NCBI GenBank assembly: GCA_963666275.2
Contig: CAXXOA010000001.1
Location: forward strand, 2,208,001 to 2,272,000
Reading direction: 5' to 3'
DNA from: Oceanispirochaeta sp.
GTDB lineage: Bacteria > Spirochaetota > Spirochaetia > DSM-2461
DNA: 64,000 bases
Position numbers and translations under genes: made by a program. Within the stretch, counting starts at the first letter, position 1, and the number at the start of each line of letters is the position of its first letter. Of the stretch, positions 1 to 17,169 are shown piece by piece. Below the pieces are notes generated by a model that was not told where the DNA came from, ran no database searches, and was given only the letters and a program-made list of their open reading frames with translations.

Positions 1-429
1 TCCGTATTTTTCAAGGATAACAAAATCGCCCGCCTTTTCAGTAAACTGGGTATCAGAGTATATCTCTCCTTTCATTCCCGCATCGATCTGATAGGATTCG
101 GGAAGATTCAGGAGTTCCTCTTCCGAAACCTGCAGCTCCGTTTCCGGGATTTCCCCGATAACCAGTTCATCATTGAATTTCAGATACAGGAAAGACTGCA
201 CTCCCTGCAGAACCTCCACTTCCATCACCCGCCCCTGAACATACAGGGGAACAACAGGCAACGGAGCCTCTTCAATGACTTCCTCTACAACCTGAACTGC
301 CGGAGGCGGAAAGAGAGCCTCCAGAACAAGAGGATCCTCGGGCTGCTCCTGAGGTTCTGCAGTTCTGCAGGACAGGAGACCTCCCAGGACAAAGAGCAGG
401 AGAAAACTATTCAAATATCTTTTCTGCAT
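1..429 (-). CDS. Lipoprotein, runs off the window edge; possible FlgT C-terminal-like beta domain
   Basis: Absent from the ORF track and translated by hand: MQKRYLNSFLLLFVLGGLLSC-RTAEPQEQ..., lipobox LLSC, open to base 1. It overlaps the stop of the upstream gene. The fold call is a weak visual resemblance. Confidence 0.75.
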   Translation of the reverse strand, partial: MQKRYLNSFLLLFVLGGLLSCRTAEPQEQPEDPLVLEALFPPPAVQVVEEVIEEAPLPVVPLYVQGRVMEVEVLQGVQSFLYLKFNDELVIGEIPETELQVSEEELLNLPESYQIDAGMKGEIYSDTQFTEKAGDFVILEKYG

Positions 430-1732
430 AGAGAATATCCTTTTCCAGGTAGGTATCGACGGTCCTTCCGTCAGGCCCGACTAACAGAGCGGTATTGTAG
501 GAAGAGAGATCCGGCAGATACAGTTCCCTGACCACTTCAGACTTTTGAAAGAGATTTTTATCTTCCGATTCATGCCATTCATCCGAAACAATAAGAAATC
601 TGTTTAAACCGACCTGGCCGGGAATAGAATGAATCATTCCCCAGGGCCCCTGATAACCCGATGCGGTATATATCCTGTCGCCTGTCAGGGGGAAGTCCGT
701 ATCCAGCATAACGATCCTTTTCCGGGCTTCATCCGACAGGACCGTATTCAGGATAAACGGCAGAGACCGATCAATAACATCAGATACATCTTCCGCCTTC
801 AACCCGGAAAAGGGGATGTCGTAGGAGGCCAGAATTTCTCTCCTTCGGTAATCGAATATCTGAAGTCTCAAAACGCTGAGCCGCTGAGAAATACGGATTT
901 CCCCCTTCAGCCCCCACTGACAGGTTGCCCTTGAGGAAACATCCGCTCTTGTTTTTGATTTCAAATCATGGATCAGAACCGGGAAAAAACCGGAAAGGTG
1001 GAGTCTCATTCCCATCCATTGGGAAACAATGTCCTCATCGGCTCTGAAATCTGCCCCGTCAAGGGTCATGAATGGCAGCTCTGTGAAAGAGAACTCCCCA
1101 TTCTGGATCTCATAGTACTGATAAAACTTTACCGGAAAGGGCTCAACATAGATTGTACTGGTCTGATGGGGTTCCTGTTTTTGCTCCAACCGGTACTGGA
1201 TTTCATTCAGAATATCCGGCAGAAGGAATTCCCACTCGCTGCTAAGATTATCCAGAATTCTATAACTGTAGATAACATCCTCGATAGTGTTACGGGGATA
1301 GACTGCCACCATGAGAAAGTACTTATCCGCAAACCGGGAGATGTTGACAGTAGAAAAATAATCCAGAGGGAAGCGGTCTTTTCTGATTCTGTATCCGATT
1401 TCAAGAATATCCCGGGGACCGGTGTTGGGATATTCCTGTGCCAGCCACTCATTCAGACTGTAGGGTTTAAACAGGTTCTGCCTGACATACGCCTTTGCCA
1501 GATCTCCATAGATTCTGTCTGAAACCTCCGGGGGAATATCTCCCTGGACTTCGGGAAGGAAGAGTCCTATGGAAGGGACGGTTTCCTCCTGGGCGTCATA
1601 GAGCTCCTGTACCGCAGGAACGGCCTCCTCCTGAACAGGCTCTTCTGACGATTCAAAGATTCCGGAAGCACTGAGAGGCAATAAGGGAAAAAGGATGAGA
1701 AGGAATATTTGAAAAATATTTTTTTTCTGCAT
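407..1732 (-). CDS. Exported protein with two predicted alpha/beta domains (CsgG/TolB-N-like, tentative), in the CIS operon
   Basis: Start re-placed at MQKKNIFQIFLLILFPLLPLSA (signal peptide). It lies directly downstream of the tube gene. The fold is inferred from the secondary-structure pattern only. Confidence 0.65.
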   Translation of the reverse strand: MQKKNIFQIFLLILFPLLPLSASGIFESSEEPVQEEAVPAVQELYDAQEETVPSIGLFLPEVQGDIPPEVSDRIYGDLAKAYVRQNLFKPYSLNEWLAQEYPNTGPRDILEIGYRIRKDRFPLDYFSTVNISRFADKYFLMVAVYPRNTIEDVIYSYRILDNLSSEWEFLLPDILNEIQYRLEQKQEPHQTSTIYVEPFPVKFYQYYEIQNGEFSFTELPFMTLDGADFRADEDIVSQWMGMRLHLSGFFPVLIHDLKSKTRADVSSRATCQWGLKGEIRISQRLSVLRLQIFDYRRREILASYDIPFSGLKAEDVSDVIDRSLPFILNTVLSDEARKRIVMLDTDFPLTGDRIYTASGYQGPWGMIHSIPGQVGLNRFLIVSDEWHESEDKNLFQKSEVVRELYLPDLSSYNTALLVGPDGRTVDTYLEKDILYAEKIFE

Positions 1733-1751
1733 TTTTAAACAGGAAAGGGGA

Positions 1752-1779
1752 TTACCCGGGATTGAATCACCCCGGGTAA
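1752..1779 (-). promoter_or_regulatory. Intercistronic hairpin after the tube gene (terminator or mRNA stabiliser)
   Basis: TTACCCGGG...CCCGGGTAA 9-bp perfect stem just after the tube stop codon; no clear U-tract. Confidence 0.5.
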
Positions 1780-1783
1780 ACAC

Positions 1784-2212
1784 CTATTTCCATTCTCCGT
1801 CTTCATAGACGATAGAAATGGTTTCCGTCATAGATCCCACTTCCTGACTGTTCAAGTCGGACATGGTCCATCCGCAGGGAACACATTCAAACAGGTTCCG
1901 TCTTGTAATTTCGCTCTGTCCGTCCCGGTCTACCAGAACAATAGAGACCGCTTTCCTTTCGGGAATCCCTCTTTCCACTGTTTTCCACCAATCCCGCAAT
2001 ACAGTATCTTTGGGATCGCAGTTTCGTGAAAAAGAGACCACATCGTACTTCACTTTTCCCGGGATTTTCCTGGCATTTCTATCGACCCCACCGATATCAT
2101 CAGTGATTTCGGCCGTAGCGCCCAGACCTGTTACAGAGGTAAAGTTACCATAATCCACACCGTCAATTTCGACTTTGAAATTGGTCTTCATCGTTGGTAC
2201 ATAATCAGCCAT
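1784..2212 (-). CDS. CIS tail tube protein (T4 gp19 / Afp1-Afp5 family)
   Basis: 142 aa with FKVEIDG..GNFTSVTGL, RKIPGKVKY..V..SR, LRDWWK, ERKAVSIVL.D, NL.EC.P..W and ETISIVYE, the typical tube pattern; adjacent to the sheath gene. Confidence 0.93.
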   Translation of the reverse strand: MADYVPTMKTNFKVEIDGVDYGNFTSVTGLGATAEITDDIGGVDRNARKIPGKVKYDVVSFSRNCDPKDTVLRDWWKTVERGIPERKAVSIVLVDRDGQSEITRRNLFECVPCGWTMSDLNSQEVGSMTETISIVYEDGEWK

Positions 2213-2235
2213 CTTTCTTCTCCTTCTTAAAAGAT

Positions 2236-3459
2236 TTATTCAGACAATGTCTTTTGCGAAACGCGGAATACGACAAATTCGGCCGGTTTGGCCGGCGCAA
2301 TTCCCACTTCACAAACAACATAACCTGCATCAATGGATTCCGGAGGATTCAGTTCATCATCACAGCGGACAAAAAATGCCTCCTCGGGAGAATCGCCAAA
2401 CAGAGCCCCTTCTTTCCAGAGGCGCAAACAGAATGCCGTGAGATTCCTGACAATCTGCTTCCACAGGGACCGGGTATTCGGTTCGAACACCACCCAGTTG
2501 GTGCCGTCCTGTATAGCTTTTTCAACCATACAGAAAAGACGACGGATGTTAATGTATTTCCATTCCGGGTCGGAACTGAAAGTCCTGGCTCCCCAGACAC
2601 GGATGCCTCTACCGTCAAACTCTCTGATGCAGTTGATCCCTTTGGGATTCAGCAGTTCCTGCTCTGCATCGGTCAGATTGTATTTCAGCCCGGTAGCTCC
2701 CCGGAAAATTTCGTTGGCAGGAGCTTTGAAAACTCCTCTGGTGCTGTCTACCCGGCCGTACACGCCGGCAATACCACCGCAGGGTGGGGCATAGACATCC
2801 GTATCATTATCGGGATCGTACATTTTTACCCAGGGAAAGTAATAGGCTCCCATGGTAGAATCCCGTGGCATGGGCATGGTATCTATCCCCTTTTCCAGAG
2901 TTTCCGGTGCATCCAGGACGGCAACCCGAAATCTGTTTTTTTCACAGTGGGACAGGATGGCGTCCTGAGCCGCCGGTTCGGTAACGCCGGGAGCACAGAC
3001 TATGGAAATATCACCGATTTCATCAAAAGCACAGAGGCCGGACCTTTTTCCCGGTCCTTCATCTTTTCCTATGATCAATTTGGTAATCCCATCGGGATTC
3101 TTTACTATAAATGGTTCTTCCACTGTTTCAGGTTTTGCCTTGGCGTCCTTGGTCTGATCCTTCTCACTCTCTTTACCAGCCGCTTTCTGTGCGGGTATTT
3201 CCATCAGATTGTTGATATAGCACTTGGTGCCGCCATTCTGAAAGAACTGATATACCGAATGAGAGAGCCATCCGTTTTTGTGCATACCGCCGAAGGTTTT
3301 AGTATATTGCGTCCAGTTGGTAACGAGGGTGGCTTCATTAACAGGCCCTTTTTCTGCAACTCCAAGAAAACCCACCACATTGGTAGCACCGGCTTCCAGA
3401 GGTTTCGATCCGCTGGAAACTTCTTCAACATATACACCGGGTGTCAAATACTGTGGCAT
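2236..3459 (-). CDS. CIS contractile tail sheath protein (Afp2/3/4 family)
   Basis: YLTPGVYVEEV N-terminus, AYYFPWVK, RGVFKAPAN, LNPKGINCIR, GIRVWGART, WKYINIRR, WVVFEPN and GIAPAKPAEFV motifs. Confidence 0.97.
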   Translation of the reverse strand: MPQYLTPGVYVEEVSSGSKPLEAGATNVVGFLGVAEKGPVNEATLVTNWTQYTKTFGGMHKNGWLSHSVYQFFQNGGTKCYINNLMEIPAQKAAGKESEKDQTKDAKAKPETVEEPFIVKNPDGITKLIIGKDEGPGKRSGLCAFDEIGDISIVCAPGVTEPAAQDAILSHCEKNRFRVAVLDAPETLEKGIDTMPMPRDSTMGAYYFPWVKMYDPDNDTDVYAPPCGGIAGVYGRVDSTRGVFKAPANEIFRGATGLKYNLTDAEQELLNPKGINCIREFDGRGIRVWGARTFSSDPEWKYINIRRLFCMVEKAIQDGTNWVVFEPNTRSLWKQIVRNLTAFCLRLWKEGALFGDSPEEAFFVRCDDELNPPESIDAGYVVCEVGIAPAKPAEFVVFRVSQKTLSE

Positions 3460-3486
3460 AATCCGATTTCTCCTTCCTCAATTTCT

Positions 3487-4038
3487 TTATTTTTTTACAG
3501 CAGAAAACTGCCGTTGTATGACTCTCACCACCCGCTCTTCCTGAGACGAGTTTATTCCCAGCTGTATACACAGATCCCAGCGGTAGGGTTGAAAAGGCTC
3601 CAATTCCCCGGGAAGAGGATAGGAGGCATCAGAATCAAGAAGGTTCATCATGGCTTTTCCCGATTCATTGCCGTACCAGTTGTAGTCTCCCAGAGTAAAA
3701 AAGGGATTATCCTCCACACTCCGATGGATACGGGCGGAAACATCCAGTGCCCTGATGGCTGATTTAAAAGCCGGAACCAGGGCAACCCTCAGGTCCACCA
3801 TCCGGGGAACGGGAACCTGAACTTCTACAGAACTGTCCGGGGATTTCCCGCCGGGTTTTACGATTCTCAGAGTTTCATTTCTATTTCTGCCGTGTCCCTG
3901 TTTGATATCCAGAAGGACAATGACAATTTCCTCCCGGTATTTGCCTTCCCATAGAGAGACGGGGATTCGGGGAAACCATGAGACAAGAGCCTCCCGGATC
4001 TGATTCAGTGAATAACTGAGAACTGCAGCCTGATCCAT
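3487..4038 (-). CDS. Putative Afp16/Pvc16-like tail terminator (cap) protein
   Basis: Size (183 aa) and position immediately upstream of the sheath match Afp16; sequence resemblance is weak. Confidence 0.5.
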   Translation of the reverse strand: MDQAAVLSYSLNQIREALVSWFPRIPVSLWEGKYREEIVIVLLDIKQGHGRNRNETLRIVKPGGKSPDSSVEVQVPVPRMVDLRVALVPAFKSAIRALDVSARIHRSVEDNPFFTLGDYNWYGNESGKAMMNLLDSDASYPLPGELEPFQPYRWDLCIQLGINSSQEERVVRVIQRQFSAVKK

Positions 4039-7000
4039 CAGTATTCGGACCTCCTGTCTTCAATGACAAGTCCTTCAAGATAGAGGAGCTCATCGGGCCG
4101 GATAGAGATTTTATCCTGTTCCAGACCTGTTGATTCGTCAAAAAGCCTGATGTCCTCGACATGATGGATGGAGGAAATACGATCCAGAGTTCTCTGGATA
4201 AACTCTTTCTGAAGGGAAGCGCCGAACTCCCAGCCGTTTCCATCGTTTCCGCCTACAAGCGGATGCAGAACCTGTGCAATCGCGCTGTTTATCTGATCTT
4301 TTGCCGAACGGGCTTCTATGACCTCTTTTCGGAAAACCAGCTTCAGACGAATTTTGACGGACCGATACAAAGGGCCTGAAACCTGCAGTTTTGTCCCCAC
4401 CAGTTTCCTGACAGACAAATACTCTTTTACCCTGCGCAGCAGTTCCGAAGAAGGATAGAGCTTCTCTTTCAGATCGATAGATTCTCTTCCCGGCAAAATG
4501 ATCACGACCACCTCTCCCCGGCTGTTGACTTTGGGCAGACAGATGGAACGGCCCACCGACGAAGAGGCTTCATAGGAGAGCCAGGCAAAGTCCTCGGATG
4601 TGACAGCCCGGTTCCGGCTCCGGAATATTCCGGAAGCCCTTTTTTTAAGGTTTTCCAGTGATTCCAGGTCTGCTCCGCCCATGGCGGGCAGAGGGTTTTC
4701 CACACCCGCAAGGAAAGGAAGGCTCTCCCGGAGGACTTTAACCTGGCCTGCTCCGATATTTCCCCTGACTCCGCCACCGGCAGAGCACTGCCGTATAACG
4801 ATATTATTCTTTCCCCTGGGGGGAATAACGCCTTTTTTTCCATCTCCGAAGAGGATTTTGTTCTTTTGATAGTCCAGGACATAATGCCGGGAAACCGCCG
4901 TGGATTCATGAAAGTGCGGAACCTGATGGTAAGTTACCCAGACTTCCTCTTTTCCTGATCCGGTCTGTTCTTTTCGAACAGCTCCGGGACCTTCTTCCTG
5001 TTCTATGAGGCTCCGTTCGTTTTCGGGAGGATAGACATCCTCCCTTACCTCGATCACAATTCCCGGAAGAATTGGATAGCGGACCAGATCATACTCCTGC
5101 AGAGGCGATCCGCTGCCGGATCCCAGCTTTTCATTATAGAATGTCTGCTTGTTGGATCCGTAAACCGAATTCAGATGCACATTTTTTATGACAGGCATGG
5201 ATTCAAAACTGCCGTTTTCGAATACGACCCGCATCCAGCAGAGACTCTGTCCATACTGCTCTTCCTGTTTCCAGTCGACGGGGATCTGAAACTCAATGAA
5301 TCCTGATCTGTGAAATGAGTCGGTAAAATCGTTAACATTCAGCTTTTCCCAGGTATTATCCCGGCGGTACTCCCATCGAAGAGTGATCTGCCTGTTTTTC
5401 CTGTGAACCAGGTCTTCCCTGTAAAAATCCTGCCTGTCTTTTTCATCCAGTTCGAAAAAAAGAGAGGATTCTCCCGCAGGCAGTGGGTGTTCAAATCCGA
5501 AACCCGTGGCCGGTGCGCTTTCATCATTCACCGTGATTAATGTCACAGGATCTGTGGGTTCCTGCTTTTCTGCGGCTTCAAAATTTTTTCGTATTTCACG
5601 GGTGTGATCACTGTAGGCGAAATCCGAATATACCTTCAGATTCTCTACTGACCGGAACCCTGAATCATAGCTCAAACGCAAGCGGGAAACCACAGGAGGA
5701 ACAATCTTTTCAGAAAAATACCAGTTCCATTTGCCATCAGGACTCTGGGAGTATCCGCCCCCTTTGCCCAGATCCTCTACAGAAATTCTTACCCGGATCC
5801 AGGTGGACAGGACTCCGTTGACCTCTTTTTCCCGGATATCATCGGGACAGAGAAAAGAGATCACTCCGGACTCGCAAAATGCCTTTGTTCCATCCCGAAA
5901 AGAATAACTGCCGCTGGCATACGCCTCTTCTCCGGGGGTTGATACTCCCAGGATCATCCAGTCCTTTCCGTTCCAGTATTCATAACGCATGGAGAGAGAG
6001 TCTCCCGGAAAAGACGGGCTGACAGCTTCATTCAGAAGGACATTGATCTGAATTTTCGCTCCCTTCTTAGAAAAGACCTCATGGGATGAAAGATAGAAGA
6101 TATCATTCACAACAGGAGCTTCCTGAAAAGGCTTGAAATCCTTGTTCAGATCTAATGGGATAAAAGTTACAGAGTTGAAAAGACAGCTGTCCGGTGCCAG
6201 TCCGTCTCCGGAAAAGATAAGCTTTGTTACCATACCATGGCAGTCAAAACAGCTTTTTTCCCGCGGCATCTCGTCAAGACAGGCGCGGATATAAAACCCT
6301 TCCTGCCCGTCTATCTCTCTGGATGCAATGTTCAAGGGCCCGCTGAAATAGACTGTATTCTCTTTTCGTCTCTCCCCTTTATGAAAATAGGCGGGCTCAA
6401 CGGGCTGCCAGCGTTCGCCGTCCCAGAGAGACCAGCTGAAAAAGCGGATCAATTCACTGGCTGCTGAAGCAACCTCTCCTGCCTGTTTCATCTGTAGACA
6501 GACCAGATTGGATTCCTGGAGGAACTGAAAATCTGCCGACTGTATATACAGGTACCGGCTCACTTCATCCGAAGCCCGGAAGAGGGGGAACCCTTCCCCC
6601 TGGTGGTGAAGAGGTTCTGTAAAATCACTGATTCTGGATTGAAAAGAACTTATACAGGAGACAATCCGGTTTTCCCGGATCCCTATCCTTTTGTCTGTTT
6701 CAAACGATATGGCCTGATCGCCGTCATTCCGTCCAGTAGAGACACGAAAGCCTTTTTTGATATCCAGAAGCCCCTCGTATCCGGCTGTGGGCTTGAAGGT
6801 TAGAAGAACCCTTGAAGCCTGGGGAGAGGATAGAGAGAGCCCCATAAGATCAAGAAGAGCCAGATAGGTCTTTTCGGGAACTTTGTTTAAACGGAACAGA
6901 ACCATTTCTGTCATCCATGAGAAGAGTTCGACCAGGGTGACGCCGGGATCCGAAGGATTGTGGTTCGTCCATTCAGGGGTATAATGGGGAATCAAAGAGA

Positions 7001-7058: not shown

Positions 7059-7452
7059 TTTCGCCTCGCTCCAGATAAAAAGGGTAAACCATGTTGAAAT
7101 AGGTATTGACTGACCGCAGGAGATAGCTAATTCCTACATGAAACTTTGTCTCATCTTCAGGATCCTCCCTGACTTCCACATTCTGCAGAATGATTCTATG
7201 CTCCCACTTTGTGAGGGCTTCTTCCACATAGTATTGAGCCAGAGACCTTGTCCGGGAATTGTTGGGTGCAAAAACCAGACTATTCAGATCACAGCCGAAG
7301 TCCGGCCTCATGACCCGTTCTCCTCTGGTGGTGCCCAGAATTATTTTTATAGACTCTTCCACCGATTCTTTACCAGCTATGCTTTTGATGCATCCCTGCG
7401 AGTCGATACCGAAATCTATTGAAAACCCTTTTCCCAGAAAAGAAGAATCCAT
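7033..7452 (-). CDS. gp25/GPW-like baseplate wedge protein (Afp9)
   Basis: FLGKGF, ESIKIILGT.RGERVMRPDFGC.L, L.KWE.RI and NMVYPFYL motifs; ATG at 7452 preceded by GAAGGAG. Confidence 0.93.
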   Translation of the reverse strand: MDSSFLGKGFSIDFGIDSQGCIKSIAGKESVEESIKIILGTTRGERVMRPDFGCDLNSLVFAPNNSRTRSLAQYYVEEALTKWEHRIILQNVEVREDPEDETKFHVGISYLLRSVNTYFNMVYPFYLERGEIDTQSQFG

Positions 7453-8389: not shown

Positions 8390-8408
8390 GTTTCAGGAGG
8401 TTTTCATA

Positions 8409-9041: not shown

Positions 9042-10927
9042 TGGCCTGGGGATTCAGCACTATACTGGAAGAGTTTAAACAGGATTACTATGACCCTACC
9101 GATCCCATTGACCGGATGGTATACGAGGAAAACCAGAGGAAACAGAACTTCTCCTTCGGGATCGTTACGGATAATCAGGACCCGGACAAACGGGGGCGTA
9201 TCAAAGTTCACTTACCCATGATTGCCAAAGACTACATCAGCAGATGGATCTGGATATTCCGCCCCTACGGGGGAGATAACAAGGGGATCTGGGCCCTGCC
9301 TGATATCGGTGATCAGGTGATGATCGCTTTTATCAGAGGCGATATCCATCACCCCGTCTGCCTCGGTGGAATGTATACTCCGAGGCACAGGCCTCCGATC
9401 AAAGACAATCCGGACAACAATATCAAAGCCATCAAAACCAAAGGCTGTTACCTTCTTATGGACGAGACTCCCGGAGAAGAGCGGATGGAAGCCTCCCTCA
9501 AGGACGGACAGATCCGCGTGGTGATCGATACCAAGGGCGTGCATCTGACCAATGAATTGGGAGGTATCGATATCCAGTGCCGGAAACTGACCATTGCCGG
9601 AGGGGCAGTCCAGTTTCAGACCGAAAAAGACCTGAGCCTCAAGACAGGTGGAAATCTGACCATGGAATCCCAGAGCACCCTGGCCCTCAGCGCTGGCGGA
9701 GAGATTACCATAAAGGGTAGCTCTGTCGACCTGAAAGGCAGCACGGGAGTCACCGCCGAGGGCAAACAGATAGCCAAGGAGAGTGATCCTGTAGCGGGTA
9801 TGGACCTGCACGACATAGAGGTTCCCTCCAGCAAAGGAACCCAAAAAGTCCCGGCTATCCCCCACCCTTATATGGGAAAACTGGTAGATAAACTGAGCGG
9901 CGATGTTTCTGTAGGCGGCAAAGCCGCAGCTACACAGGGCTCGAAAAGTGAATTCGGTGCTCCCGGTCATTTCCCGATGCTCCCGGGAATCAAGTTTTCC
10001 AGCAATCCCGACAATATGGGAGAGGTCACAGGCGGCTGCATCGACAGCGTAAAAATCAATGGCAACCCGGCGGCAGTTTTAGGCAGCACGGTCAGCACCT
10101 GTGACGATGCGGGCCAGAGCGACCACTGTACGGTAGTCGCACCCGGCACGGTAGTCACCTTCCCCATCCAGTACCCCGGGCAGGACCCGGAGCAGTACAA
10201 ACGGGACGGCGGATTGCCGATCAATGTGTCAAACCCTGCAGTGTATACTCCGGAAGATATTGCCTACAGGGATCAGCCCAAGAGCCTGACCGCCCTGCAG
10301 TGGAGTGCCAGCGAGGTCAACAAAGGCGAAGAGGTTACCCTCAGCTGTTCCACCAGCGGAGTGAAAGACGGTGCGGGGGTGATGTTCAGTATCTATCCCG
10401 AAGGGGCGAACACGGAGGTTGATCCGCCTTTGATGGATATCAGGGGCAAAAACAAAGGCAGCCGGGCTGAGGTGAAGTGGATTGCCAAAGACATTCGCAA
10501 ACCCGACGGGGATCAGCCTATGAAGTGGTTCTTTACTGCCTGGACGCTGTATTGTCCGAAAGAAGAGAGCGGTGAGATTCGGGTGCTGAATCCCAGAGTA
10601 ATAGATATGGAGTGGGAGAAAGACGCTGTATTCTGGGGAAATGAAATTAAACTTATTATCAATTCTTTTGAAGCAAGTAATTCGTCTAAAAATTACTCTT
10701 TAGAATTATGGGAGCAGGATATCTCAAATCCCGATGATTTCATTAACAACCAGGAAATTTCGATAACTGATGATTCCTTTGAAATAACCTACACATTAGA
10801 CTTTGATCTATCCCTTGTATCTGATTTTAACAGTGAAAAAGAGTACCAGTTGTACTGCAGAATTCTTGATAAAGAAGGAAATGAACTAAAGACCTCCCCT
10901 ATTTGTGAAATGCATGGAGATTACTAA
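9041..10927 (+). CDS. gp5-like spike fused to a PAAR domain and a C-terminal beta-sandwich extension
   Basis: OB fold (GIVTDNQDPDKRGRIKV, LPDIGDQV), beta repeats, then a PAAR-like region (PHPYMGKL, VSVGGKAAA, VKINGNPAAVLGS.V.TC) and a ~250-aa extension. TGATG coupling to the upstream spike gene. Confidence 0.85.
   Translation: MAWGFSTILEEFKQDYYDPTDPIDRMVYEENQRKQNFSFGIVTDNQDPDKRGRIKVHLPMIAKDYISRWIWIFRPYGGDNKGIWALPDIGDQVMIAFIRGDIHHPVCLGGMYTPRHRPPIKDNPDNNIKAIKTKGCYLLMDETPGEERMEASLKDGQIRVVIDTKGVHLTNELGGIDIQCRKLTIAGGAVQFQTEKDLSLKTGGNLTMESQSTLALSAGGEITIKGSSVDLKGSTGVTAEGKQIAKESDPVAGMDLHDIEVPSSKGTQKVPAIPHPYMGKLVDKLSGDVSVGGKAAATQGSKSEFGAPGHFPMLPGIKFSSNPDNMGEVTGGCIDSVKINGNPAAVLGSTVSTCDDAGQSDHCTVVAPGTVVTFPIQYPGQDPEQYKRDGGLPINVSNPAVYTPEDIAYRDQPKSLTALQWSASEVNKGEEVTLSCSTSGVKDGAGVMFSIYPEGANTEVDPPLMDIRGKNKGSRAEVKWIAKDIRKPDGDQPMKWFFTAWTLYCPKEESGEIRVLNPRVIDMEWEKDAVFWGNEIKLIINSFEASNSSKNYSLELWEQDISNPDDFINNQEISITDDSFEITYTLDFDLSLVSDFNSEKEYQLYCRILDKEGNELKTSPICEMHGDY
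10055..10596 (+). repeat. Direct repeat copy 1 (PAAR end plus first extension domain)
   Basis: High-identity match to 14706-15247, with the same 4651-bp offset at both ends. Confidence 0.95.
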
Positions 10928-10931
10928 GGAT

Positions 10932-12035
10932 ATGCCAATGAAACAGAAGATCCTCATACTCTTATGGCTTATTGCCAATATCAATATTTTTTCAAATGAT
11001 CTCTTCACTCCCAAGATAAATCATGGGGAACTGATAGAACTGAATGTAAACACCATCGCTCAAACTCTGGGTATAAGTGAAGAGGACGTTAAGGCCCATC
11101 CCCCGGAGAAAGAGGGATTCGGTCCCATAGAAAGTTATGGGGAATATCATGAATTCTTTCAGATCCTATCTATGATACCCCGCGGTTTTTTCATACAGGA
11201 TATACCGGAAGAAGGGCTTACTTTCTATCGGGTAATGTATGAGGTGGAACAGCAACATGCCATTACCGATGAAGTACTCTGTTATGAGCGAATATTCTAC
11301 CAGGATAGAGACACGGGGGAAATTATTCTGAGTTATGAAGACTATATGAACTATAAAGCCAGAGGTTGGCAGTTAAGTACACCGGAAATTGAGAAGGGTG
11401 TAATGCTTATTGTCAGAAACGGCAGCTATGACGGTGTTATGGTTTACCGGTTGTGGTATGAGGATGTTTACGAAATGGAAGATCCTCCCCGGTATGAGAC
11501 AAAAAATAGGCATGAAGCTTTTGTATACTTTTTTGGTGATGGAGAAAAAACAGCTGTTCCCGATAACTTTGAAGACCCGGATATCCATATTACCGCATCC
11601 AATCCTCTTATAGACAGGGATGATAGATTCAAATACACCATACAAAACGCTTTCGATCAGAATCCGGCCACCAGTTATGTGGAGGATACGGAGGATGACT
11701 TAATGGAGGTAAGTATTTCTTTTTCTGACGAGTATTACAATGCTTTATTGGATAAGAATATTTCAATTGTATCTAGACGAATTATAAATGGATATGCTCA
11801 GGATGGAAATTTATATCAACTAAACAATCGTATTAAAAAAGAAAAAAGTTATGAGTTAGTAGATAATTTCCTAGATTATCAAATAATGCCAAGAAAATAT
11901 ACTGAACTTGGTGTTGGTTATAGAATAATCGTCAAAGACATATATAAAGGATCAAAATACAACGATACATGTTTAGCAGAATATGATTGGAAAATGAATA
12001 TTGGAGATTGGATTTTTGGAGGTTATGATGAGTAA
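10932..12035 (+). CDS. Exported protein with a C-terminal discoidin/F5-8-like domain; candidate immunity protein
   Basis: Signal peptide MKQKILILLWLIANINIFS; NAFDQNPATSYVE...INGY...NNRIK...KGSKYNDTCLAE pattern; 8-nt overlap with the effector gene. The immunity role is inferred. Confidence 0.7.
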   Translation: MPMKQKILILLWLIANINIFSNDLFTPKINHGELIELNVNTIAQTLGISEEDVKAHPPEKEGFGPIESYGEYHEFFQILSMIPRGFFIQDIPEEGLTFYRVMYEVEQQHAITDEVLCYERIFYQDRDTGEIILSYEDYMNYKARGWQLSTPEIEKGVMLIVRNGSYDGVMVYRLWYEDVYEMEDPPRYETKNRHEAFVYFFGDGEKTAVPDNFEDPDIHITASNPLIDRDDRFKYTIQNAFDQNPATSYVEDTEDDLMEVSISFSDEYYNALLDKNISIVSRRIINGYAQDGNLYQLNNRIKKEKSYELVDNFLDYQIMPRKYTELGVGYRIIVKDIYKGSKYNDTCLAEYDWKMNIGDWIFGGYDE

Positions 12036-14460
12036 AGCTCATATCCGGAATCTACCTATCCCTTATTTTTCTCAGAGAGAAAATATGTATGAATGGAAAG
12101 AGAGAGAACCAAAGGAAATTTGGAGTGATGAACAGGAGAAAGACATCCCAAATCCAAATGCTGGTAATGTAATTTACTGGACAGCTGAGGATGAAGTAGC
12201 TAATGCAAACCATAAAGAAGGAACACCTAAAAAAACAGAGACCATGTCCCTTTGCAGTTGTAACATAACCTGTCTGGCAATGCTGCTTCAATACTGCGGA
12301 ATAACCGATGATACTCCTGACGATATAATGGAAAAAATCTTCTCCGCAGCTACGGATGAAGATAATGATGAATTAAGGGCTATCAAGGAAGAGAATTATT
12401 CACATGGGCCATCGAATGTATTAAGCATAAGATCCCACAAACGAATTGTAAAAGCCTTATATAATATCGATACGGTTGATTTAGGTTACTCCAGCAACCT
12501 GGAATACCTTAAGGAAACAGTGGCCAGCGGTTTTCCTGTCATGATTAGTTGTGGAATTCTTAGACGTCACACAGAATCATTCTACCAAAGCATTATTGAT
12601 GGAGCAAGTAACGCTCATCTATACTCATACTCCCATGATGGAATAAGAAATGTTCATGATGATTTACTCTCAATTTACAGGAACAATTATGGGACCAGCT
12701 ATGAGGAAGATCTTTCTGAAGCTCTGGAAGAATTAGAAGCTGCATCTACAGATGAAGAAATAAACACTGCCAATCAGAAAATTGAAACGATTGAGAATCA
12801 GCAGGAACAAGTAAAAGAAGAAGTTCTTCAGTACTGTCTTGATGATTATAGAACACACGGTCATTATATCGTTGTAAGAGGATTTACCGAGGATTCTGTC
12901 ATAATCAACGATCCATGGGGTGATCCAACAGATTTCAATGGCAATTTTCCCAGCGATGGGAAGGGAAATTACTACAACAGTTCCCCCTTTGGAGATAATA
13001 TTACCATTTCCCTTGAGGACTTTGAAAAACAGTATAATGCAGACGGTACTCTTTGGTCGTCCTTAGTAATTAGACATAATCTGTGGAACTTCGTATTTGC
13101 TTCAAATACGGATAGAAGAGTCGTCCCTCCGCAAACTCTTCTTAATGGTTTTTATGAGCAAGAAATCTATGAGTACGGGGGTTACCCCATGAAAAGGAGT
13201 AATCTCTGGCATAATGGGATTCACCTGAAAGCCGACAACATAAGAGGAGTCTATCCTATCGGTCCTGGTCAAATCATCGCCGCAAGGATTCTGGATGAAG
13301 ACTTAAGCAACCCGGACAATAATCCTGCTCCAATTAATGGTAATAGATGTTTTGTTCTGATAAAACATAATTTAAATATCAACAGTGAAATCAAATCTTT
13401 CTTTTCACTATATATGCATTTAAAACCTGAAGAAAATCTGGAATCGAAAATATCAAACTATCCGGTACAACCCCTGCAAGCGGATTGGTTGGAGGAGATA
13501 ATCTTTCGTTCTAAAAAAGTCATGAAAGTAAAAGATAGTAGGACTCCCTCCATCTTCAGTGTTGAAGATGATAGAAATCTTGGCTCATTTACAGCAGGAA
13601 CATTATTCCCCTATGAGAGCTGTGATGATCAAAAAATCTACTTCAATTTTGAAATATCTGGACAAACAAGAGAATGCTACTCCTTTATGACAGATGATTT
13701 CTATATTTATCCAAGTGCCTATAAAAGCAATTCAGAAGAGATTATGGATAAATATCAAAGTGTTCTTGATTCATTAGCCCAGGGCAGAACAACATATTTC
13801 ACAGAACTGCCTGATCCTGTAATAGAAGTGACCGCGTCCACATGTATCGGAAAAACTGGAGTCTTTGGTGGTTATAATGCAGAAAATAGAGGAATGATTC
13901 ACCTTGAAATATTCAGCGACGATATTATTATACCTCAATTTGATGAATATGGGTTTAATCCAGAGCCTATCTATCTTGAGGATTCACCTACTGCAATGTG
14001 TAACAGAGAAGAAATGATAGGTCTTTTTGATAAATTTGGCTTATACAACACCATTGCAGAAGGATCACGATTTATCCATCTACAGGATGGAATCATTTCT
14101 AAAGCGGAAATGCAGGCGTATTATAATCAGAAGCCGGCAATTCTGAGAAATATGATTTGCCAACATAAAAGTGAATGGTATGAAGGAATCAATTGGGAAG
14201 ATGAGTTAGCGAATGCGGTGGGAGTCCCTTTTGGTATTCCTTTAATCCATAATGTATTGGAAGACAAATTAATAGAAAACCTGCAGGAGTATATTAACAG
14301 AATTTATAACCCCTACAAATGGCTGAATGATGGAGATTGTTTGAATGCCATGAATCTGGAATCCTCTGATAATCTAGCAAACGGGTGTGCCACATACTAT
14401 CACCCTATAAAATTCCTTGAATGGCTTGTGGAATATCAGAACCAAGTTATTACAGATTAG
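12028..14460 (+). CDS. Candidate CIS effector: N-terminal C39-like cysteine peptidase plus WHIX-like (degenerate M23-like) region
   Basis: LPIPYFSQ, SCNITCLAM (Cys), GHYIVVRG (His), INDPWG (Asp); then GGYP....LWHNGIH, FFSLYMHL, IHLEIF and YYHPIKFLEWL. No signal peptide; AT-rich. Confidence 0.75.
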   Translation: MSKAHIRNLPIPYFSQRENMYEWKEREPKEIWSDEQEKDIPNPNAGNVIYWTAEDEVANANHKEGTPKKTETMSLCSCNITCLAMLLQYCGITDDTPDDIMEKIFSAATDEDNDELRAIKEENYSHGPSNVLSIRSHKRIVKALYNIDTVDLGYSSNLEYLKETVASGFPVMISCGILRRHTESFYQSIIDGASNAHLYSYSHDGIRNVHDDLLSIYRNNYGTSYEEDLSEALEELEAASTDEEINTANQKIETIENQQEQVKEEVLQYCLDDYRTHGHYIVVRGFTEDSVIINDPWGDPTDFNGNFPSDGKGNYYNSSPFGDNITISLEDFEKQYNADGTLWSSLVIRHNLWNFVFASNTDRRVVPPQTLLNGFYEQEIYEYGGYPMKRSNLWHNGIHLKADNIRGVYPIGPGQIIAARILDEDLSNPDNNPAPINGNRCFVLIKHNLNINSEIKSFFSLYMHLKPEENLESKISNYPVQPLQADWLEEIIFRSKKVMKVKDSRTPSIFSVEDDRNLGSFTAGTLFPYESCDDQKIYFNFEISGQTRECYSFMTDDFYIYPSAYKSNSEEIMDKYQSVLDSLAQGRTTYFTELPDPVIEVTASTCIGKTGVFGGYNAENRGMIHLEIFSDDIIIPQFDEYGFNPEPIYLEDSPTAMCNREEMIGLFDKFGLYNTIAEGSRFIHLQDGIISKAEMQAYYNQKPAILRNMICQHKSEWYEGINWEDELANAVGVPFGIPLIHNVLEDKLIENLQEYINRIYNPYKWLNDGDCLNAMNLESSDNLANGCATYYHPIKFLEWLVEYQNQVITD

Positions 14461-14672: not shown

Positions 14673-15593
14673 ATGATTACTGGCAGCAACATCAAAGCCA
14701 TCAATATCAATGGCAACCCGGCGGCAGTTTTAGGAAGTACTGTCAGCACCTGTGACGATGCGGGCCAGAGCGACCACTGTACGGTAGTCGCACCCGGCAC
14801 GGTAATCACCTTCCCCATCCAGTACCCCGGGCAGGACCAGGAGCAGTACAAACGGGACGGCGGTTTGCCCATCAATGTGTCAAACCCTGCGGTGTATACT
14901 CCGGAAGATATTGCCTACAGGGATCAGCCCAAGAGCCTGACCGCCCTGCAGTGGAGTGCCAGCGAGGTCAACAAGGGAGATGAAGTCACCCTGAGCTGTT
15001 CCACCAGCGGTGTAAGAGAGGGCGCGGGAGTGATGTTCAGTATCTATCCCGAGGGGGCGGATACGGCAACAGATCCCCCTTTGATGGATATCAGGGGAAA
15101 AAACAAAGGCAGCCGGGCTGAGGTGAAGTGGATTGCCAAAGACATTCGCAAACCCGACGGGGATCAGCCTATGAAGTGGTTTTTTACCGCCTGGACGCTG
15201 TATTGTCAGAAAGAAGAGAGCGGAGTTATACAGGTGTTGAATCCCAGGATAACAGATGTGTCATGGAAAAAGAAATCCTGTTTTCTGGGAGAGAAAGCGG
15301 AACTCACTATTAAGAGTTTTGAGATGAGTAATAAATCTCCTACAATCTCTATTGAACTTTGGGAAGAAGATGAGAATAGTCCTGATGATTTTGTACTTAC
15401 ACAGGAAGAAAAAATCGACTCTGACGAAATCTCAGTAACCATACCCTTTGATTTTTCACAGGAAGAACTGGAAAGACTCTCCGATTTTGATATGGACACG
15501 GAAGGTGATCTTGAAATATTTCCTGTTCTGAAATACCAGGATGAGAAACTGGACACGAAACCCGGAATAGTACGAATAAAGACAGGAGCCTGA
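14673..15593 (+). CDS. Orphan, 5'-truncated spike/PAAR C-terminal module with an alternative terminal domain
   Basis: Near-identical to the C-terminal part of 9041-10927 up to VLNPR, then divergent. It lacks the OB fold, the beta-helix and most of PAAR. Confidence 0.85.
   Translation: MITGSNIKAININGNPAAVLGSTVSTCDDAGQSDHCTVVAPGTVITFPIQYPGQDQEQYKRDGGLPINVSNPAVYTPEDIAYRDQPKSLTALQWSASEVNKGDEVTLSCSTSGVREGAGVMFSIYPEGADTATDPPLMDIRGKNKGSRAEVKWIAKDIRKPDGDQPMKWFFTAWTLYCQKEESGVIQVLNPRITDVSWKKKSCFLGEKAELTIKSFEMSNKSPTISIELWEEDENSPDDFVLTQEEKIDSDEISVTIPFDFSQEELERLSDFDMDTEGDLEIFPVLKYQDEKLDTKPGIVRIKTGA
14706..15247 (+). repeat. Direct repeat copy 2
   Basis: Matches 10055-10596. Confidence 0.95.
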
Positions 15594-15596
15594 GTT

Positions 15597-16751
15597 TTGA
15601 AAAAGTATTTTTTATTCTTATTACTTATGATCAGCACATACCTGAGCGCTACCACTTTAAACGAGTTTGTTCCCTACAATATGTATGACACGCCCCGGGA
15701 AGAGATAGAAGATTTCTACAACTTTGCCGTTGAGAATAATATTCCTACCGCGGGAATAACCACTCTGGATCAAATGCATGTTCTTGCCAGGGGAGTGAAA
15801 AAGCTCTTCCGTATATATAAGGAAGAGATAGGCGGACATACCTTCTATCACGCTTTCTATACAACAAGGCGTCACGGCCTTGCTCGAGAAAATGACCCCT
15901 ATTTTAGAGATGATATTACTGAGGACGATATAACTTGTGCAAGAATGATTGATCCCTGGGTGGATAATCTTTATGAATTTATGGATGACAAACCCGAGTT
16001 TGGCAAAATTGAAGATAATCCCTATCCAATGATTTACCAGAGGCTTTACCTGGAGACAGGGAATGGATTGAAATATCTGGATGAGGCGGAATATTTTCTT
16101 TCGTTCAACCGTCCGGGTCCCACAACAATTGGAATAGAAATTGGATCCCTGCAACCCTGGTCTCTGGAGGATGAATTTGGTTATTGGTCAGTTCTTTATA
16201 TTAAAAGTAAACAGTTAGGAATGTATGATTCAGTATCCTATGGACAATCTCATAGGGCCAAACGTGTTTACCTTGATGAGGAAGGTGAGAACATAGGACA
16301 GATAGATATTGAAGCCAGCAATCCTCTGATCGATTCCCAAAGACCTTTCCGCTATCTGATTCTCAACGCCTTCGATCAGAATCCGGCCACCAGTTATGTG
16401 GAGGATACAGAAGATGATTTGATGGACTTTGTAGGATTGTATTCAGATTCTTTACAAGTTTATCTACATAATAAAAAAACTGAATTAATAGGATTAAGAT
16501 TAGTTAATGGTTTTGCAAAAAATCAAAGACTATATTTTGAGAATAACATAATTACAAAAATTGGAAGTAATATCCTTAAAAAAACAATAGATTATCAGTT
16601 CATCAAGTATCCAGCACCTCAAATGTCTATTGGGATAGGATTTGGCGCAACAGAAATTAGTAAAGGAACAAAGTTTAATGACACTTGCTTAGCTGAGATT
16701 GATTGGCAACTAACAGATGGATCTTACCTTATAGGAGGTCGGTTTGAATAA
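15597..16751 (+). CDS. Paralogous exported discoidin-domain protein; candidate orphan immunity protein
   Basis: Signal peptide MKKYFLFLLLMISTYLSA; shares ASNPLID, NAFDQNPATSYVEDTEDDLM and NDTCLAE with 10932-12035; N-terminal half divergent. Confidence 0.75.
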   Translation: MKKYFLFLLLMISTYLSATTLNEFVPYNMYDTPREEIEDFYNFAVENNIPTAGITTLDQMHVLARGVKKLFRIYKEEIGGHTFYHAFYTTRRHGLARENDPYFRDDITEDDITCARMIDPWVDNLYEFMDDKPEFGKIEDNPYPMIYQRLYLETGNGLKYLDEAEYFLSFNRPGPTTIGIEIGSLQPWSLEDEFGYWSVLYIKSKQLGMYDSVSYGQSHRAKRVYLDEEGENIGQIDIEASNPLIDSQRPFRYLILNAFDQNPATSYVEDTEDDLMDFVGLYSDSLQVYLHNKKTELIGLRLVNGFAKNQRLYFENNIITKIGSNILKKTIDYQFIKYPAPQMSIGIGFGATEISKGTKFNDTCLAEIDWQLTDGSYLIGGRFE

Positions 16752-17169
16752 TTCTCGTATAAGAAATCTTCCAATTCCTTATTTTTCTCAACGGGAGAAT
16801 CTTTATTCTTGGAAACAAAGAGAGCCAGCATACAAAGGTATTGATGAAGTAACACAATTGCCAATTTCTAATCCCAATAAAGGTAACATCATCCAATGGA
16901 CATCAGAAGATGAAGCTATAGATCCAACCCATAAAGCAGGTACTCCAAAAAATCAAAGATCCCTGGCATATAGCAGCTGCAATATAACCTGTCTCTGTAT
17001 GGTGCTGAATTACCTGGGGATTTCCCATGAAACCCCGACTCAGATGCTTGAAAAAGCCTTTGATGTGAACGACCCCAAAAACACTGATTTTCTCAATCTT
17101 CTTAATGAAAGCGGATTAATCCTGAAACACAGGATTATCATCGGAAATGATATCTTTCACAAAGGTTGA
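16744..17169 (+). pseudogene. Truncated paralog of the C39-like effector
   Basis: IRNLPIPYFSQREN and SCNITCL are retained, but the His/Asp motifs and the WHIX-like region are absent. The frame runs into the antisense 3' end of udk. Confidence 0.8.

Follow-up and report, generated by a model that had tools for sequence, protein, structure and literature searches.

How do phage-tail-derived machines belonging to the eCIS lineage (eCIS, extracellular contractile injection systems) couple to the envelopes of the cells that build them? Anchors have only been hinted at, in haloarchaea (a protein with six transmembrane, TM, helices) and in Streptomyces (CisA), and we know of no diderm bacterium with an eCIS-type machine for which an envelope module has been defined. 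We examined this question at a locus of the spirochaete Oceanispirochaeta sp. (assembly GCA_963666275.2), in a window of 64,000 nucleotides that spans positions 2208001-2272000 of contig 1. The features at 1-17169 of this window make up the rightmost third of a ~44-kb cluster for a contractile injection system (CIS), with ~27 kb more lying to the left of base 1. Besides the machine, the cluster encodes four proteins that may tie it to the cell envelope and two arms of variable cassettes, in which candidate effectors stand beside exported proteins. Coordinates are window positions unless a contig is named.

The genome comprises 5.27 Mb in three contigs (47.5-48.1% G+C) and is rated 97% complete. 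A first-pass annotation, made from the letters of the window alone, had called the source a probable spirochaete, and the names of the nearest sheath relatives agree: the closest named ones, at 72-89% identity, are all Spirochaeta, Spirochaetaceae, Spirochaetales, Alkalispirochaeta, Treponema, Breznakiella or Treponemataceae. Every gene which that annotation named was found where it had been placed. Its view of the machine was nevertheless partial, as the left 27 kb that it missed hold an AAA+ ATPase, a tape-measure-like protein and three DUF4157 cassettes, all classical eCIS features. The cluster is bordered by a LysR gene and metabolic genes on the left and by housekeeping genes from 17116 on the right.

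The machine itself is encoded by a structural operon of 21 tightly packed genes, with every intergenic gap from gp25 through the ATPase at 80 bp or less. These encode the baseplate proteins (Cis9, Cis11, Cis12-like, and Cis13-like), sheaths and tubes (two of each), the LysM tube initiator, VgrG in split form, a probable cap, and the AAA+ ATPase. Within the window, on the minus strand, the operon contains a gp25-like sheath initiator (Cis9/Afp9-like; 7033..7470; PF04965, 2.1e-25), the 1006-amino-acid (aa) Cis11 baseplate protein of gp6/Baseplate_J type (4038..7058; PF04865; TIGR02243, 5.3e-85), a 183-aa protein (3487..4038), sheath 1 (Cis2-like, 407 aa; 2236..3459; PF04984 and PF17482), and an inner tube protein (Cis1/Afp1-like, 142 aa; 1784..2212; PF06841, 5.1e-23; TIGR02241) that scored below the cut-off of CIS1_fam. 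The genes for an exported protein and a lipoprotein, described below, follow the tube. Onward to the left lie genes for a DUF1257 protein, a Tail_P2_I/Cis12-like protein, a 519-aa Cis13-like protein, a 125-aa zinc-ribbon/FHA protein, a 395-aa VWA protein, sheath 2 (511 aa), tube 2 (Cis5-like), a CIS_tube/LysM protein (Cis7), the N-half of VgrG (Phage_GPD), an NrdG-like radical-SAM activase, the Cdc48-like ATPase (Cis15), a pentapeptide-repeat protein, and a 160-aa protein. Just downstream, past a 226-bp gap, the structural part ends with a tail-assembly-chaperone-like protein (phrog_508, 7.7e-9) and a 1087-aa protein of no family (L1087), which from its position after the chaperone-like gene we infer to be tape-measure-like.

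Sheath and tube genes are doubled in the cluster (PF04984 with PF17482 twice, PF06841 twice). The baseplate set includes gp25 (Afp9), gp6/J (Afp11), a P2_I-type protein (Afp12), the LysM tube initiator (Afp7), VgrG (Afp8), and PAAR (Afp10). The ATPase matched PF00004 at 8.4e-29 with a Cdc48-like protein as its best match, and is 73-86% identical in relatives. Altogether, matches to PF06841, PF04984/PF17482, PF04965, and TIGR02243 bear out the first-pass calls of an Afp/PVC-type tube, sheath, Afp9-like gp25, and Afp11-like gene. The call of an Afp16-like cap for the 183-aa protein stands as a lead only. Searches of Pfam, NCBIfam, and PDB sequences gave no match, while in a language-model protein atlas the protein adjoins clusters of Pvc16_N (first match 0.93, 209 shared features, PF14065 in 46% of members), so that we treat it as a probable Afp16/Pvc16-like cap or terminator. 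PDB sequence searches also returned nothing meaningful for the protein labelled L243 or for the Cis13-like protein.

Three further genes of the operon deserve mention in their own right. The NrdG-like activase (Fer4_12, 3.7e-32; contig 1 2199414-2199968, minus strand), encoded between the VgrG N-half and the ATPase, is kept at 39-58% identity in all relatives whose contigs reach that position; we know of no role for such a radical-SAM enzyme in a CIS. The DUF1257 protein directly after the lipoprotein (contig 1 2207511-2207912) is a conserved part of the cluster, present in 11 of 16 spirochaete loci and one Bdellovibrionota locus. The pentapeptide-repeat protein after the ATPase (contig 1 2196893-2197621) is likewise a conserved part.

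The identity of the machine as a CIS of eCIS gene type is close to certain. The profile matches to its core parts are complemented by what the genome lacks: no PF05943 (VipB/TssC), no PF05936 (TssK), and no PF09850 or PF06761 (the models for DotU/TssL and IcmF-related/TssM) were detected in the genome, with E. coli controls positive for each. A canonical type VI secretion system (T6SS) was ruled out on these grounds, in agreement with the earlier reading of an eCIS-type rather than a T6SS gene set. The more specific statement that TssJLM, TssB/C, and ClpV are absent holds genome-wide for the VipB, TssK, IcmF-related, and DotU models; ClpV was looked at in the cluster, where the AAA+ protein is Cdc48-like (Cis15) and not ClpV, and TssJ was not searched.

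Comparison with solved structures placed the sheath near two cell-associated systems. Sheath 1 matched 8BKY (4.7e-116) and 9EZM (2.2e-114) far ahead of Pvc2 (1e-51), Afp3 (8.1e-50), Afp2 (9.1e-45), the Anabaena thylakoid CIS (1.4e-40), and AlgoCIS (7.5e-39), with no T6SS sheath among the listed matches. Sheath 2 ranked its solved relatives in the same order, and Cis11 matched 9GTP (2.7e-69) ahead of AlgoCIS (1e-9) and Pvc11 (5.6e-4). Full-text searches linked 8BKY to the Streptomyces coelicolor CIS sheath, 9EZM to the sheath of Halogeometricum borinquense, and 9GTP to Cis11 of the Streptomyces CIS.

We then built a maximum-likelihood tree of 86 sheaths (a quick LG+G4 run, supported by the Shimodaira-Hasegawa-like approximate likelihood-ratio test, SH-aLRT, only). 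It includes Afp2-4, S. clavuligerus, and other haloarchaea as stand-ins for the sheaths of Photorhabdus virulence cassettes (PVC), metamorphosis-associated contractile structures (MAC), AlgoCIS, S. coelicolor, and H. borinquense, which were placed by score ranking. All 18 spirochaete sheaths fell into one clade (SH-aLRT 99), sister to one Bdellovibrionota and one Arcobacter metagenome-assembled genome (98). At an unresolved fork, this clade meets that of Afp and three groups: Streptomyces/Deinococcus/Actinomycetota, Methanoperedens, and a large one that contains the haloarchaea. By this tree, the spirochaete sheath is a lineage of its own, apart from the Afp clade. The sheath is accordingly not nested within the lysis-released Afp clade, the point on which the first-pass annotation had asked for a phylogeny, with Afp as the sole lysis-released representative in the tree.

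What sets the spirochaete operon apart is a set of four genes for envelope-associated proteins. The exported and membrane protein genes lie inside the structural operon, as no gap between gp25 and the ATPase exceeds 80 bp. Two exported proteins had been noted after the tube, and both were confirmed. The first, exp_458, is encoded by a 458-aa open reading frame (ORF) at 407..1783 on the minus strand and carries a signal peptide when translation is taken to begin at the ATG at 1732, the likely start of this periplasmic protein. The second, lipo_168, is a 168-aa lipoprotein whose gene starts at 429 and runs left on the minus strand to contig 1 2207923, with its first 143 codons in the window (1..429); its lipobox Cys21 is invariant in 9 of 9 homologues. 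The other two genes directly follow those for the Cis12- and Cis13-like proteins. VWA_395 (395 aa) has a signal peptide, a VWA domain, a single TM helix (326-344), and a C-terminal zinc ribbon, giving a bitopic protein with the VWA domain in the periplasm and the zinc ribbon in the cytoplasm. The 125-aa zinc-ribbon/FHA protein is cytoplasmic.

The AlphaFold2 model of exp_458 (predicted local distance difference test, pLDDT, 84.8; predicted template modelling score 0.81; 14 homologues) contains two tandem alpha/beta domains, at residues 50-186 and 187-333, of the kind found in the TolB N-terminus, CsgG, PelC, LpoB, HpaA, and FlgT. VIA-align gave the highest similarity to the FlgT-containing LPHT ring (Z 12.2, root-mean-square deviation (rmsd) 3.2, 125 aligned), followed by TolB (12.1), the curli complex (11.2), and PelC (11.2). 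Foldseek ranked TolB first (6.8e-5), and the protein atlas named the same families as a weak lead. Many proteins of this fold sit in the periplasm as components of envelope machines, where they often form rings; function cannot be read from the fold by itself.

Structure prediction suggested that exp_458 and lipo_168 bind each other. Complex prediction with the mature proteins scored 0.71 (runs of 0.66, 0.76, and 0.71), against 0.00 for the best of three controls. Of 157 solved complexes, 116 attained that mark, as did 2 of 215 mismatched pairs; these counts are rough here since our own alignments were used. The runs shared at least 54% of contacts, with a partner pLDDT of at least 73. In the predicted interface, residues 32-44 of lipo_168 lie on domain 1 of exp_458 and include alignment-invariant positions on both sides (L34 and P41 of lipo_168, P90 and W96 of exp_458).

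To follow these genes across genomes, we compared their distribution with that of the sheath. The cluster is patchily distributed. Strong sheath matches were present in 6 of 41 relatives, including the source genome, and in 2 of 10 further genomes from this genus; class-wide, 13 of 201 Spirochaetia genomes were sheath-positive (10 of 108 genera). A profile of exp_458, a family for which a word-based search gave only 6 proteins and which was recovered by tblastn and profile, matched 12 of the 13 sheath-positive genomes and none of the 188 sheath-negative ones. The single exception is an 80% complete, 510-contig assembly in which the sheath lies at a contig end. The neighbourhood conservation on which the first-pass annotation had made its reading depend is thus present, with the exported-protein gene tracking the sheath. 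VWA_395 was found in 12 of 13 sheath-positive genomes and in one of 188 sheath-negative genomes, there as a weak match of 25% identity. A tblastn survey covered 79 named loci, 16 from spirochaetes and 63 non-spirochaete loci of the same sheath family. Among the 16, many of whose contigs end early, it detected exp_458 in 11, lipo_168 in 9, and the FHA and VWA genes in 7 each, while none of the four was found in the 63 others, including 9 haloarchaeal loci.

Across families the sheaths keep 75-91% identity, and one copy of the cluster resides on a plasmid, which suggests horizontal spread. The plasmid copy, 78% identical in its sheath, lies on pTRESU01 of the cultured gut treponeme Treponema succinifaciens DSM 2489. 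Cultured carriers also include Breznakiella homolactica RmG30 and Alkalispirochaeta alkalica DSM 8900, and the cluster has relatives in spirochaetes from gut, termite gut, and sediment. In five relatives, synteny extends from the spike arm through to the DUF4157 arm.

The spike arm diverges from the structural operon at a 226-bp intergenic region (7471..7696) that presumably holds promoters for both. It opens on the plus strand with a GerE/LuxR-type regulator (7697..8389; PF00196, 2.2e-9), followed by two spike genes. Spike A is a 240-aa VgrG C-half, composed of an OB fold and beta-helix (8319..9041; PF04717, 1.4e-16; NF033848 VgrG_rel positions 374-542). Spike B (628 aa; 9041..10927; PF04717, 1.8e-23) combines a VgrG C-half with a PAAR-like stretch and a variable C-terminal tail; its PAAR scored 25.3 bits against a cut-off of 27, a threshold passed by the contig-2 copy and by the relatives' homologues. 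The corresponding gp27-like N-half of VgrG is encoded in the main operon (contig 1 2199965-2201014), 15 kb from these gp5-like C-halves. With two alternative C-halves in the spike arm (8319-10927) and a third on contig 2, the split VgrG suggests interchangeable spike tips.

Downstream of spike B lies the first cassette. It comprises an exported 376-aa protein (10905..12035, plus strand) with a signal peptide and a C-terminal NADase-type discoidin (glycan-binding) domain (PF25302, NF047619), which is a candidate immunity protein, and an 819-aa effector candidate (12001..14460, plus strand). The latter has no signal peptide and an N-terminal C39-like papain-fold peptidase domain (PF13529, C39_2, 1.3e-12), along with a weak match to the endolysin phrog_10051 (2.7e-5). 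Its C-terminal half had no Pfam match at E<=5. In a pairwise comparison, residues 391-500 were similar to the N-terminus of an M23 effector from a relative (E 8e-5). An M23-like reading of this half, prompted by a His-rich motif seen by eye, was dropped for want of Pfam support at that threshold, and only the C39-like domain is called.

A second copy of this arrangement follows on the same strand. A 587-bp homology handle at 10052..10637 is repeated at 14703-15289 with 90.8% identity (blastn). The repeat lies within an orphan 306-aa copy of the C-terminal part of spike B (14673..15593), which is 72% identical to spike B residues 329-620 and diverges after approximately residue 510 into a different tail. 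Next come a second exported discoidin-domain protein of 384 aa (15597..16751), a paralogue of the 376-aa protein in its last 147 residues only (46% identical), and a truncated C39-like effector of 141 aa (16744..17169), which is 50% identical to residues 10-130 of the 819-aa protein and marks the right end of the cluster. By its gene content, 14673-17169 is a second, decayed cassette, and a spike-arm cassette consists of a spike tail, an exported protein, and a hydrolase. G+C content over the spike-arm cassettes falls to 0.38-0.43 (10001-14000 and 16001-18000) from a genome value of ~0.48, which fits recent acquisition of cargo genes. Further stretches of equally low G+C occur in the window at 28001-30000, 48001-50000, and 56001-58000.

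An auxiliary island on contig 2 (~624134-629537) has a similar layout, with a full spike/PAAR protein, a 777-aa protein, and an exported YARHG protein, followed by two IS66 transposase genes of identical length. Its spike gene shares 1548 bp at 85.8% identity with spike B and differs in its prealbumin-like tail. The 777-aa protein matched no Pfam family, and an NlpC/P60 reading rests on a Cys/His motif seen by eye. Cargo also varies between relatives. No counterparts of the 376-aa, 384-aa, or C39-like proteins were present in the five syntenic loci, and the spike arm carries a 970-aa unknown protein with an ankyrin lipoprotein in one relative and a 1333-aa M23 protein with an exported 456-aa protein in another. 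On pTRESU01 (1-25985) of T. succinifaciens, spike/M23/SH3 cassettes lie directly after the Cis12-like gene: each of two M23 proteins precedes an exported SH3 protein, and between the cassette copies lie additional spike/PAAR fragments and an IS3 element. In all four relatives' cassettes examined, a protein without a signal peptide precedes an exported one. The first-pass description of a spike arm with signal-peptide proteins and variable effector cassettes is upheld by these data, with each effector beside an exported protein and the cassettes differing between relatives.

The left arm, which the first-pass annotation did not cover, gives the system a DUF4157 cargo arm in addition to the spike arm. 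Beyond L1087 are three cassettes, each with a ~270-aa DUF4157/eCIS_core protein bearing an HExxH motif; these three are 48-51% identical to each other. The effectors lack signal peptides and comprise a CHAP/NlpC_P60-like protein (E ~0.01, catalytic motifs seen by eye), an unknown 250-aa protein, and an M23 protein (8.3e-15), which all-against-all BLASTP showed to have a common N-terminal domain of ~80 residues. All three cassettes end with an exported protein, which either bears a signal peptide or is a lipoprotein. The last 100-250 residues of L1087 recur as three orphan ORFs (75-85% identical) that head cassettes two and three and close the array. Judged by gene layout, both arms combine a handle with variable cassettes, as in polymorphic toxin loci.

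This arrangement resembles one from a phage-tail-like particle of Streptomyces lividans, where the account of Nagakubo et al. 2026 (PMC13277306) pairs a tape-measure-related cargo with a DUF4157 protein (Sle1/Sle2). L1087, after the chaperone-like gene, is likewise followed by eCIS_core proteins, a likeness drawn from the description of the genes. Unlike in Sle1/Sle2, three orphan fragments repeat the C-terminus of L1087, each at the head or the end of a further cassette, and wall hydrolases with exported partners make up the cassette cargo.

Exported partners stand beside all three left-arm effectors, in both spike-arm cassettes, and in the contig-2 island. At the level of gene organization, this pairing of a hydrolase with an exported neighbour fits antibacterial toxin-immunity pairs. 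It is probable that the system is antibacterial and carries immunity, and its most likely role is interbacterial antagonism. Hydrolases without signal peptides (M23, NlpC/P60/CHAP-like, and C39-like) would be injected into the periplasm of rivals to cut peptidoglycan, while the adjacent exported proteins would act as periplasmic immunity proteins that protect sister cells. In a haloarchaeal relative, DUF4157 toxin-immunity pairs are reported to have been shown experimentally (PMC11566945).

How the machine would deliver such cargo depends on the role of the envelope module. A particle that assembles in the cytoplasm cannot include exported proteins; these must therefore work in the producer's envelope. 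Candidate roles are an anchor, an exit site, a trigger, a release device, or self-protection, among which the sequence does not choose. In the mechanism we propose, four proteins, an outer membrane (OM)-type lipoprotein, a periplasmic TolB-N/CsgG-like protein, a bitopic VWA protein, and a cytoplasmic zinc-ribbon/FHA protein, would couple the cytoplasmic machine to the envelope, serving as its anchor, its exit site, or its trigger. Firing would then be directed outward by a cell that is still alive, in the manner of a T6SS, and would not follow lysis. Of the modes of action considered, we rank such envelope-coupled firing from within the cell as the likeliest, while holding it tentatively. The first-pass annotation had gone as far as a cell-anchored machine with a trans-envelope complex of exported proteins, and we infer both from gene content in the same conditional sense. 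VWA_395 is a candidate anchor, an analogue in its cluster association of the archaeal six-TM protein.

A more elaborate form of this proposal is that spirochaetes independently invented trans-envelope coupling. The OM lipoprotein would hold a possibly ring-forming TolB-N/CsgG-like protein, which would dock or signal through the VWA and FHA proteins to the baseplate, and the machine would fire on contact or envelope damage without TssJLM. We regard this version as possible but doubtful. In their arrangement, the lipoprotein, periplasmic protein, VWA membrane protein, and FHA protein resemble TagQ, TagR, PpkA, and Fha1 of the threonine-phosphorylation pathway (TagQRST-PpkA-PppA-Fha1) that activates the Pseudomonas aeruginosa H1-T6SS. 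Unlike in that pathway, the spirochaete VWA protein has no Hanks-type kinase domain and the cluster no kinase or phosphatase, making the resemblance an architectural one. On paper, the cluster is also like a canonical T6SS in its spike-linked variable cassettes, its auxiliary island of spike, effector, and exported protein, and its periplasmic partners for wall hydrolases, which recall hydrolase-immunity pairs of the Tae/Tai type.

A precedent for a machine of this lineage acting like a T6SS exists in archaea. Zachs et al. 2024 (PMC11566945) describe a haloarchaeal eCIS-lineage "T6SS" that is membrane-bound and contact-dependent, with DUF4157 toxin-immunity pairs and a candidate six-TM anchor. 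The H. borinquense system resembles ours in its eCIS-lineage gene set, its sheath (9EZM) being among the two closest solved relatives. It also has DUF4157 proteins with downstream partners and a lineage-specific, cluster-associated membrane protein, and is reported to lack TssJLM (PMC11566945). Unlike the spirochaete cluster, with its four-gene module across a diderm envelope, it is described as working through a single membrane and S-layer with the six-TM candidate anchor (PMC11566945). Membrane binding and contact-dependent killing are reported as shown for the archaeal system, whereas the spirochaete one is known from its genes. With the haloarchaeal case, an eCIS machine acting like a T6SS is less without precedent than the first-pass annotation supposed. 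Its statement on spirochaetes stands, as we found no characterized spirochaete CIS in the literature searched, which did not cover the supplementary tables of eCIS catalogues, where spirochaete loci may be listed.

Several observations weigh against envelope-coupled firing. By tblastn, no exp_458 homologue was found in 5 of the 16 spirochaete loci; one of these contigs ends in or at the sheath gene, and at least two (L031 and L040) have sequence downstream. By eye, the first aspartate of the metal-ion-dependent adhesion site (MIDAS) of VWA_395 looks replaced, and Pfam scans of the ORFs of the cluster revealed no kinase or PP2C domain that could feed the FHA domain. The sheath tree is a quick LG+G4 estimate with an unresolved base and Afp as its only lysis-released representative. 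Immunity proteins would be needed against released particles too, such that they do not discriminate between modes, and a part in release, self-protection, or regulation would suit the envelope module just as well. A released eCIS has the same inventory of tape-measure-like protein, chaperone, probable cap, and AAA+ ATPase; as these are common to released and cell-bound members, they too do not discriminate. Finally, the carbohydrate-binding-like C-terminal knob of the Cis13-like protein would suit the receptor-binding fibre of a released particle and argues for extracellular binding.

These points lead to the strongest alternative, a classical extracellular CIS. Particles would be assembled in the cytoplasm, released by an unrecognized lysis or export route, bound to target bacteria through the Cis13-like knob, and used to inject the same hydrolases. 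The envelope module would then act in release (disrupting the envelope in place of holin, endolysin, and spanin), in self-protection against kin particles, or in regulation. We judge this a less likely account. In its favour, the full eCIS parts list is present down to the ATPase, tape-measure-like protein, chaperone, and probable cap, and the DUF4157 cargo cassettes and GerE regulator are as in catalogued eCIS loci. Geller et al. (PMC8213781) document antibacterial eCIS toxins, some with immunity pairs, and use DUF4157 as a cargo marker; the same source reports GerE genes adjoining 25.8% of eCIS loci, and that most antibacterial eCIS toxins come without immunity genes.

The Cis13-like protein is central to this alternative. 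Its match to CIS13_fam is N-terminal and reaches 38 bits, far below the cut-off of 370, and its structural model has a pLDDT of only 68.6 (14 homologues). The model shows a conserved N-terminus, a helical region, and a C-terminal jelly roll (~365-519) whose best structural matches are carbohydrate-binding modules (CBMs; Z 10-11.4, rmsd 2.6-2.8, 121-129 aligned), along with certain receptor-binding domains of phages or toxins. The N-terminus is common to haloarchaeal proteins of ~414 aa from loci of the same sheath family, and these homologues are without the jelly roll. Such a CBM-like C-terminal domain is as expected of a short fibre bearing a glycan-binding knob, which a released particle might use to find its target. 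Yet this domain is conserved like the rest of the protein, at 82-85% identity in close relatives and 41-52% across families; exp_458, for comparison, is only 33-56% identical in those same close relatives. Conserved and not hypervariable, the knob is not a typical fast-evolving, strain-specific receptor binder.

Lysis genes bear on the same question. The first-pass annotation had seen no holin or endolysin, and Pfam scans of ORFs from ~12 kb left to 6 kb right of the cluster found no holin or classical endolysin cassette. Within the cluster, a crude hydrophobicity filter, which is no proof of absence and in that respect limits the case for a cell-bound machine, found no holin-like small TM ORF outside annotated genes. 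The claim therefore stands for a holin-like ORF or lysis cassette at the level of crude scans, and is softened by the weak endolysin PHROG match (2.7e-5) of the 819-aa protein. The peptidoglycan hydrolases of the cluster could themselves take part in release. They fit effectors better than a lysis module, since each has its own exported partner and sits in a variable cassette, as expected of toxin-immunity pairs. A cytoplasmic FHA protein beside a bitopic membrane protein is also hard to place in a pure release role, and the nearest characterized relatives are not released particles.

With Afp and PVC of Serratia and Photorhabdus, the spirochaete cluster shares a tube, several sheath paralogues, a LysM tube initiator, gp25, gp6-like and P2_I-like proteins, VgrG/PAAR, an AAA+ ATPase, and a probable cap. 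In contrast, similarity is much lower (Pvc2 1e-51, Afp2 9.1e-45, Pvc11 5.6e-4), the sheaths fall into separate clades, VgrG is split into an N-half and two or three alternative C-halves, and genes for the exported protein, the lipoprotein, and the VWA and FHA proteins lie within the operon. Its cargo, peptidoglycan hydrolases beside exported partners, looks directed at bacteria and not at insects.

Next in standing is an intracellular CIS as in Streptomyces, which we consider improbable. Here the VWA protein, as a CisA analogue, would recruit particles to the membrane, envelope stress would fire them, and the hydrolases would cut the producer's own wall and kill or lyse it, in regulated cell death or an abortive response. 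The sheath and Cis11 of the S. coelicolor CIS (CIS-Sc, a class IId-type CIS) are the closest solved relatives (8BKY and 9GTP). CIS-Sc has reportedly also been treated by Casu et al. in 2023. As described by Casu et al. 2025 (PMC12237407), the cytoplasmic Streptomyces CIS needs the bitopic membrane protein CisA for firing. Its gene lies just after the baseplate genes, as the FHA and VWA genes lie after the Cis12/13-like genes here, and no tail-fibre or TssJLM homologues are reported as recognized in CIS-Sc (PMC12237407). A particle of another Streptomyces, S. lividans, packs Sle1/Sle2, an analogous pair of a tape-measure-like and a DUF4157 protein (PMC13277306).

The topology of the two membrane proteins is opposite, however: CisA is reported with a cytoplasmic N-terminus and periplasmic C-terminus, the reverse of VWA_395, which in addition has a VWA domain (PMC12237407). 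CIS-Sc is described as acting inside a monoderm to mediate death of the producer cell (PMC12237407). Spirochaetes are single-celled and diderm, and have no developmental programme of the kind that the system serves in Streptomyces. The exported partner by every hydrolase, the orphan cassette arrays, and the auxiliary spike island point instead to conflict between cells. The spirochaete cluster also has spike-arm cassettes, periplasmic partners, and a lipoprotein/periplasmic protein pair that Streptomyces lacks, and the two fall into separate groups of the tree, where S. clavuligerus represents Streptomyces.

One further reading is a prophage tail that has become defective, or a tailocin killing solely through membrane puncture, with unrelated cassettes beside it. 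It would account for the tail-like genes with phage Pfam families, in a genome where a sheath-family gene elsewhere shows phage-type tails, yet was rejected as highly improbable: in Pfam scans, none of the ORFs of the 44 kb matched a capsid, portal, terminase, integrase, or other head or replication gene, the AAA+ ATPase, DUF4157, Pvc16-like lead, and CIS-specific NCBIfam matches place the cluster with CISs, and the whole cluster is syntenic across families, with 82-91% sheath identity.

Two genes outside the cluster were noted along the way. The sheath-family gene just mentioned is a third Phage_sheath_1 match (2.0e-8) in a 490-aa frame (contig 1 1640069-1640536), away from the cluster, and may belong to a prophage or a second tail-like system. 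An 841-aa protein consisting almost entirely of ankyrin repeats is encoded ~6 kb past the left cluster border (contig 1 2171873-2174398).

Returning to envelope-coupled firing as the preferred mode, the general idea of an envelope-coupled, toxin-immunity-bearing machine of the eCIS lineage was already known. What this locus adds is a lineage in spirochaetes, an envelope module that in a diderm comprises four genes and differs in composition, a VgrG divided so that its C-halves are alternatives, and arrays of cassettes on each arm. The last of these places orphan arrays in the style of polymorphic toxins on the spike arm of a CIS and on its DUF4157 cargo arm alike. For the question of how such machines couple to cell envelopes, the lineage offers a four-gene candidate with near-perfect co-occurrence with the machine, a confidently predicted periplasmic complex, and cultured carriers, and is hence directly testable. 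If the proposal is true, this would be, within the literature searched, the first interbacterial weapon system described for spirochaetes.

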